The notes beneath the pieces were generated by a model. The model ran no database searches and was not told the origin of the DNA. It saw nothing but the letters and a program-made list of their open reading frames with translations. Below, piece by piece: positions 44,232 to 45,155 of a stretch of DNA of 64,000 nucleotides. How positions within the stretch are numbered: position 1 is the stretch's first letter; every line of letters starts with the position of its first letter. The stretch is from Escherichia phage EC.P1: the sequence record PQ657772.1, one strand, 5' to 3'. A program made the translations under genes and the position numbers.

Positions 44232-45155
44232 TCATATTTTTAATTTATTTTCGAGTAAACATTTACATACATAATCAATAACAAGATTTATGTCTTGTAA
44301 ATCAAATGTTTCAGTATACCCATCACCAAAATAATCCTTTGGCAATTTACTACTATTTTTAAGCAGATTTAAAATATTATATTCTACACTTTTAATAACT
44401 TCGGTATTTCCAGTAAAATAATATAATTCCTCTACTATAAAATTAGTTTTTGACCTAATACTAATTAGTCTTGATTTATCAATCTTTGTAGAAATACCAA
44501 CTTTATATTTTATTAAAATATTTTGTTCATATATTCCTAAAATATATAATTTACTTTCTTCTGGGATTGGTCTGATACAATTGCAGTTAAGAGATCCACA
44601 TTTAACTCTACTATAATTAATATATTTGTCAAAATTACACGCTGTACAATAAAATCTAACCTTATATTGTGTACCACGGTATGTAGATTTATCCATATAT
44701 ATTGTATTTGAGTAATCTTTTATTTTATTCATAATAGTGTTATATGCTTCGTCGATATCTAACGGCATACAATATGATGAATGACATTTACAATATGAAC
44801 CTCTAGACTTAACATCATGCACCGTCATATATCTTTCAAACGCACAATCGTCACAATAAAATCTAGATTTGTTTTTTGTAGTTGTGAATGTGGAAATATC
44901 TAATTTTAATTTTGAATTAATTTCACCCAATTTATTATATAAAGTTTTAAATGTGGGACAGTGACAAAATATTCCATTTTTGTACACATTCCTAACTATG
45001 ATATTTTTACTAAACCCACATTCATCACAGAAAAAAGTTGATTTGTTTGATATGGTAGTGTATGTTGTTCTATCCATTTTTACCGATGAACCAATTGAAC
45101 TCAATTTTTCATCAACCAGTCTGAATACTTCAGAATCTGGCTTTTTACTTGGCAC
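44232..45155 (-). CDS. triple zinc-ribbon repeat protein with C-terminal GIY-YIG-like motif (possible nuclease)
   Basis: Three about 60-aa repeats (S.F.C..C.F ... V ... G..C.C) then LGIYEQNILIKYKVGIS; very AT-rich. Track GTG start abuts the RBS, so GTG at 45155 preferred. Confidence 0.4.
   Translation of the reverse strand: MPSKKPDSEVFRLVDEKLSSIGSSVKMDRTTYTTISNKSTFFCDECGFSKNIIVRNVYKNGIFCHCPTFKTLYNKLGEINSKLKLDISTFTTTKNKSRFYCDDCAFERYMTVHDVKSRGSYCKCHSSYCMPLDIDEAYNTIMNKIKDYSNTIYMDKSTYRGTQYKVRFYCTACNFDKYINYSRVKCGSLNCNCIRPIPEESKLYILGIYEQNILIKYKVGISTKIDKSRLISIRSKTNFIVEELYYFTGNTEVIKSVEYNILNLLKNSSKLPKDYFGDGYTETFDLQDINLVIDYVCKCLLENKLKI

Follow-up and report, generated by a model that had tools for sequence, protein, structure and literature searches.

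The locus between the homologues of gp431 and gp432 in Escherichia phage EC.P1 (PQ657772.1) raises a simple question: what is the gene that lies there, and why do most related phages have an empty site in its place? We examined this question in a stretch of 64,000 nucleotides, referred to below as the window, which belongs to an Asteriusvirus (a 121Q-like E. coli jumbo phage). Pfam provides no annotation for the gp431 and gp432 homologues, and a literature search found no paper describing the intervening gene in Asteriusvirus. We consider it probable that this gene encodes a free-standing homing endonuclease from the T5orf172 branch of the GIY-YIG superfamily, with DNA cleavage and homing predicted from sequence comparison and structural models. 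The features on which this reading is based are collected in Table 1.

Table 1. Features of the gp431-gp432 locus in window coordinates.
Feature	Position	Strand	Details
Putative homing endonuclease gene	44232..45155	-	307 aa; GTG start, TGA stop; 26.2% GC
Zinc-finger repeat 1 (putative)	44946..45086	-	Residues 24-70; CDEC...CHC at 43-66
Zinc-finger repeat 2 (putative)	44772..44912	-	Residues 82-128; CDDC...CKC at 101-124
Zinc-finger repeat 3 (putative)	44565..44705	-	Residues 151-197; CTAC...CNC at 170-193
T5orf172/MUG113-like GIY-YIG nuclease domain (predicted)	44253..44558	-	Residues 200-301
Initiation region taken over from gp432	45156..45223	-	Promoter-like box and AAGGAG (45164-45169)
Spacer carried with the endonuclease gene	44207..44231	-	Replacement RBS AAGGAA (44213-44218) for the downstream gp432 homologue
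Divergent tract inside the gp432 homologue (CDS 43478-44206)	43526..44206	-	Putative co-conversion tract, ~680 nt
First 48 nt of the gp432 homologue	44159..44206	-	Candidate recognition/cleavage region in gene-less phages

The reading frame opens with a GTG at 45155-45153, located 8 nt downstream of the AAGGAG sequence, and closes with a TGA at 44232-44234. The orthologue in phage vB_Ec-M-J, EcMJ_170, has identical boundaries and is annotated as an "endonuclease". A preliminary description of this DNA had called the gene AT-rich and its start context atypical. The base composition bears out the former, as GC content is 26.2% in the gene, 34.4% in the window and 33% in both neighboring genes. 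The latter holds for the GTG codon and not for what precedes it, which is a strong Shine-Dalgarno sequence in a region that is gp432's own in phages without the gene. No intrinsic terminator-like site was found around the gene. The frame is intact in all five copies, and the gene is under purifying selection, as judged from dN/dS values of 0.17-0.24 against two metagenomic orthologues.

The N-terminal part of the protein contains three motifs of the form C-x2-C-x17-C-x-C, each within a repeat of about 47 amino acids. Pairwise alignments of the repeats gave z-scores of 9.6-19.2 and none of 500 shuffles reached the observed score, so the zinc-ribbon repeats recognized in the preliminary description are real. 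A repeat HMM scores each of the three copies at 82-84 bits and, within the window, matches this ORF only. All 12 cysteines are invariant across four orthologues, and each repeat is modeled as beta-strands followed by a helix; the protein thus carries three copies of a beta-rich Cys4 (CxxC...CxC) module of about 50 amino acids. While the window protein has no direct Pfam match to CapR, DUF723 or DUF4379, hhalign aligns the zinc-finger region of relatives to repeat 2, and the segment of relative P0014 that aligns to repeat 3 is itself a Pfam CapR match (28.0 bits, cut-off 24.2). We infer that the repeats are CapR/DUF723-like putative zinc fingers, which would bind zinc and DNA.

The C-terminal domain was characterized by structure prediction. 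A Foldseek search of the full-length model against the PDB returned nothing at E <= 0.001, with Slx1 and UvrC GIY-YIG domains matching weakly; this search was uninformative because the model is multi-domain (pTM 0.40). Remodeling the C-terminal domain alone with a deeper alignment led to informative fold matches. The resulting model (pLDDT 95.6) has a GIY-YIG fold, that is, a three-stranded sheet (strands 6-16, 19-28 and 46-56 in domain numbering) with flanking helices (34-41, 57-70 and 92-107). Seven residues are invariant in 46 sequences (Y204, K218, G220, R229, E258, G279 and E282), and the catalytic-type residues of the superfamily are present: a tyrosine in the first strand, x-K-x-G in the second, an arginine in helix 1 and a glutamate. 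Either E258 or E282 may be the equivalent of I-TevI E75 and Odn E180. The GIY-YIG-like motif noticed earlier at the C-terminus, the stretch LYILGIY...YKVGIS, therefore is a true GIY-YIG-type core, and by its conserved residues and modeled fold it is predicted to cleave DNA.

Assigning the protein to a family required several steps. The PHROG family phrog_681, annotated as "endonuclease", matches it at E = 6.4e-21. Sequence searches against Pfam, NCBIfam and the PDB gave no significant direct match, and the link to a family is for this reason transitive and structural. Specifically, hmmscan at E <= 10 reported CoiA_N (17 bits) and Peptidase_M99_m only, with no T5orf172 (PF10544), MUG113 (PF13455), GIY-YIG or NUMOD, and a PDB sequence search with 4-sequence and 46-sequence profiles, like the Pfam and NCBIfam scans, produced weak zinc-ribbon noise only (CoiA_N, TraR and a GATA finger at E = 0.012). 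A word-indexed search of 5.8 billion proteins returned only 3 homologues, so that an exhaustive profile search, which yielded 52 relatives, was needed to reach the family. We aligned 51 of these relatives with the window protein and two divergent orthologues. Among the 54 aligned sequences, Pfam matches are to DUF4379 (24), CapR (23), MUG113 (19), T5orf172 (17) and DUF723 (16). Several relatives exceed the Pfam gathering scores in the region aligned to window residues 200-300: P0016 scores 29.9 bits for T5orf172 (cut-off 20) and 36.9 bits for MUG113 (cut-off 22.3), and P0007, P0008, P0009 and P0014 are likewise above the cut-offs. An hhalign comparison of the close family with five Pfam-passing relatives gave a probability of 99.5% (E = 7.5e-23). 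Additionally, a fold search of BFVD retrieved 118 viral proteins at E <= 0.001 with TM-scores up to 0.88, whose names include CapR homology, T5 Orf172, GIY-YIG and "Homing endonuclease [Escherichia phage UB]". We also considered a CoiA-like PD-(D/E)XK nuclease and rejected it: the CoiA_N score of 17 bits compares with a cut-off of 26.3, the match covers the first CxxC knuckle only, and the C-terminal part folds as a GIY-YIG domain. Elsewhere in the 64-kb window, neither domain has a paralogue.

The gene is probably an ordinary, if divergent and Pfam-invisible, new member of the T5orf172 homing-endonuclease family. Its domain order, earlier suggested to be novel, is not: CapR-like fingers followed by a C-terminal T5orf172 domain are the standard arrangement of T5orf172 homing endonuclease genes (HEGs), 200 of 229 of which carry N-terminal CapR/DUF723/DUF4379 zinc fingers with CxxC...CxC (Barth et al. 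2023, PMC10448857).

We examined the distribution of the gene among relatives and found a strong presence/absence polymorphism. The gene occurs in 2 of 35 related phage records and additionally in 2 metagenome contigs, and in all five carriers it lies between the gp431 and gp432 homologues; the metagenomic orthologues (74% and 55% identity) sit at the locus that the gene occupies in the window. Most other related records have an empty site between gp431 and gp432, as do all six gene-less phages that we inspected directly (121Q, Ecwhy_1, CMSTMSU, UB, A4 and SD-6_S16); in 121Q and Ecwhy_1, gp432 directly follows gp431. Phage ph0011 also lacks the endonuclease gene, and another gene fills the gap. 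We considered its 494-aa product as a longer homologue (phrog_681 spans 576 positions) and rejected it as tail-fibre-like and encoded by an insertion upstream of the promoter box. With a polymorphic site, and with homologues of GIY-YIG type, the preliminary reading of the gene as a free-standing homing endonuclease fits what we found, and neither outcome named there as contradicting it applies. An orthologue of 55% identity at the same locus is also compatible with a gene that was inherited vertically for a long time and then lost from most lineages.

Comparison with Ecwhy_1 defines the junctions. The 367 nt upstream of the endonuclease gene (45156-45522) show 0 mismatches to this gene-less phage, and the part at 45156..45223 corresponds, at 100% identity, to what precedes gp432 there. 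The endonuclease gene starts at the very GTG that gp432 uses in gene-less phages, and the 90 nt before it are identical in Ecwhy_1. The region contains a promoter-like box, GGGACA-16-TGATATAAT, at 45196-45223, whose putative promoter function is read from its match to the consensus and its conservation. At the other junction, positions 44209-44222 form a 13/14 direct repeat of 45160-45173.

Beyond the spacer, the sequence of the gp432 homologue changes in character. The divergent tract has 14.8 mismatches to Ecwhy_1 per 100 nt, compared to a background of 1.3-1.6 in the flanks, and it borders the endonuclease gene on one side. The carrier-type gp432 allele is restricted to carriers, with 98-100% identity, as opposed to <=85.6% elsewhere. 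Within its first 48 nt, 8 positions show fixed differences when 5 genomes with the gene are compared to 7 without it, a clustering relative to the rest of gp432 (Fisher odds ratio 11, p = 1.4e-5) in which the five known carriers, three of them near-identical, represent about 3 independent lineages. These 48 nt are likely the target, judging from the position of the differences. The tract itself could stem from ordinary recombination, because a mosaic patch of similar divergence, with no endonuclease gene, is present nearby at 45523-45800. Further insertions and deletions in the region include the tail-fibre-like gene of ph0011 and a deletion of the gp435 homologue in Ecwhy_1.

We propose that the three tandem CapR/DUF723-like zinc fingers would read an extended DNA site, which the C-terminal T5orf172-type domain would cut. 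In a mixed infection with a gene-less relative, the cut would fall at or near the gp432 ribosome-binding site and the first ~50 nt of the gene; in a gene-less substrate, it is predicted within or near AAGGAGTGTGTAAAGTGCTTGACCGTATCCGTTTCGCTACAGAGATGGCGAATGAATTAAACATGGC. Recombinational repair from the carrier would then copy in the endonuclease gene, the 25-nt spacer with its new ribosome-binding site and a stretch, variable in length, of the carrier's gp432 allele. The carrier genome would be immune to the endonuclease, because the insertion interrupts the site precisely behind the ancestral GTG, and because the gp432 codons next to it are different. For its expression, the endonuclease gene would use the promoter-like box, Shine-Dalgarno sequence and start codon from which gp432 is expressed when the gene is absent. 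Among free-standing phage endonucleases there are some, T4 SegG for example, whose cut lies far from the insertion point.

The reading that comes next is that of a nuclease of conflict, which, by cutting a site present in its competitors, would keep out co-infecting relatives or eliminate a satellite or plasmid, as Odn of phage ICP1 does, and for which gene copying would be incidental. We regard this as unlikely. Odn is indeed a T5orf172 nuclease repurposed against a satellite (PMC8263062), relatives of the window protein pair the finger array with other nuclease domains, which points to modular re-targeting, and phage HEGs are known to cause marker exclusion (SegG, cited in PMC10448857). However, the polymorphism at this locus has exactly the pattern of a gene inserted at one defined position of sister genomes, with linked markers in the flanks, and no satellite-like or foreign target was found. 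This explanation also overlaps with homing, of which marker exclusion is a consequence.

It is distinctly improbable that the protein is a domesticated or dual-function DNA-binding regulator, with fingers that bind a promoter or operator, for example that of gp432, and with little or no homing today. The DNA-binding module has a homologue in the satellite protein CapR, a transcriptional repressor derived from such endonucleases; a conserved promoter-like box directly precedes the gene, and gp432 follows it; and the gene keeps its locus in lineages as distant as 55% identity. However, CapR has no nuclease domain, whereas the window protein keeps a full T5orf172 domain with its invariant residues under purifying selection. 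The gene is also dispensable, as 33 of 35 related phage records lack it, and a regulator predicts neither a linked divergent tract nor junction-proximal fixed differences. A pure DNA-binding regulator, which the preliminary description had offered as the alternative, is less likely because the catalytic-type residues are all conserved under purifying selection. Least credible of all is an ordinary accessory gene that illegitimate or homologous recombination brought in once, that most lineages lost and that is now inactive or decaying, with no mobility driven by the endonuclease. The mosaic makeup of the region, with its further insertions and deletions, fits this reading, and the 13/14 flanking repeat could mediate deletion, but the frame is intact in five copies with dN/dS of 0.17-0.24, the catalytic-type residues are invariant, GC content is below that of the surroundings, the insertion sits precisely at a start codon with a compensating ribosome-binding site, and divergent backbones have the carrier-specific gp432 allele in common.

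The homing endonuclease reading can be taken one step further, to an insertion by "start-codon capture", although we hold this extension to be speculative and rather unlikely. The element would target the initiation region of gp432, a gene conserved across jumbo phage genera, take its promoter, Shine-Dalgarno sequence and GTG, and give a substitute ribosome-binding site in return. The three-finger array might also bind the duplicated initiation regions, tuning its own expression and that of gp432 in the manner of an I-TevI-like nuclease/repressor. I-TevI has autorepressor activity. Should every finger recognize a sub-site of its own, the array would amount to a DNA-reading scaffold of naturally modular build, which has been fused to different nuclease domains.

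With this gene, the T5orf172 homing-endonuclease family gains a divergent member that Pfam does not detect directly, and E. coli jumbo phages provide a clean natural case, in which donor-like and recipient-like genomes share 98-100% identity around the site. The junctions are known to the nucleotide, and the gp432 ribosome-binding site with the first ~50 nt of the gene is a testable candidate target. These properties make the locus well suited to measurements of homing, co-conversion and marker exclusion in jumbo phages, and to work on how CapR-like zinc-finger arrays specify DNA sites. No concept is changed by these findings, as architecture and behavior of this kind are already known or proposed for the T5orf172 family.

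Among known systems, the classical GIY-YIG homing endonucleases (T4 I-TevI and SegA-G) resemble the window gene in their modular "beads on a string" build, their free-standing position between conserved phage genes and the co-conversion of flanking markers, which is putative in the window gene. In I-TevI and the Seg proteins, however, the nuclease is N-terminal and is combined with NUMOD/HTH modules and one linker zinc finger, whereas in the window protein the order is reversed and the fingers are N-terminal. The window protein accordingly lacks the classical architecture, with its nuclease domain at residues 200-301 and no GIY-YIG or NUMOD Pfam match.

CapR of PLE (PF21817) contains a Cys4 zinc-finger DNA-binding module like that of the window protein, and relatives of the window protein pass the CapR model. 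The cysteines of CapR are needed for DNA binding, and Cys-to-Ser mutants lose repression (bioRxiv 10.1101/2020.11.28.402263). CapR is a repressor without a nuclease domain; in contrast, the window protein has kept this domain and has three fingers. Odn (Gp88, PMC8263062) shares with it a C-terminal T5orf172 domain in which an Arg and a Glu are conserved, and Odn cuts DNA in vitro in a manner dependent on the conserved Glu (PMC8263062). The DNA-binding part of Odn is a RepA_N domain rather than zinc fingers, and its target is a satellite origin rather than the allele of a sister phage.

Proteins with T5orf172/CapR annotation in other phages of the same jumbo-phage group, namely Klebsiella phage RaK2 (H6X4U5, H6X481, H6X3S2), Cronobacter phage GAP32 (K4FB54) and Asteriusvirus UB (A0A2Z5HAQ3), have the same C-terminal fold (TM 0.70-0.81, E 1e-7 to 1e-8), but are just 25-28% identical to the window protein in the nuclease domain. 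Their genes are different ones and occupy other loci, because UB has an empty site at gp431-gp432.

The T5orf172 HEGs of Vibrio phage ICP1 and other phages (for example ICP1 Gp174, Gp165 and Gp121; Barth et al. 2023, PMC10448857; Netter et al., bioRxiv 10.1101/2020.11.28.402263) are a further system close to the window gene. The window protein is, unlike them, too divergent for direct detection by the T5orf172, MUG113 and CapR models of Pfam; its cysteine pairs are 17 residues apart, compared to the 24-26 reported for CapR; and its gene resides in an E. coli jumbo phage. Both nevertheless combine N-terminal fingers of CapR/DUF723/DUF4379 type (CxxC...CxC, often repeated) with a C-terminal T5orf172 domain of the GIY-YIG superfamily, and in both cases the genes are free-standing, variably present in close phages and located at boundaries of genetic exchange.

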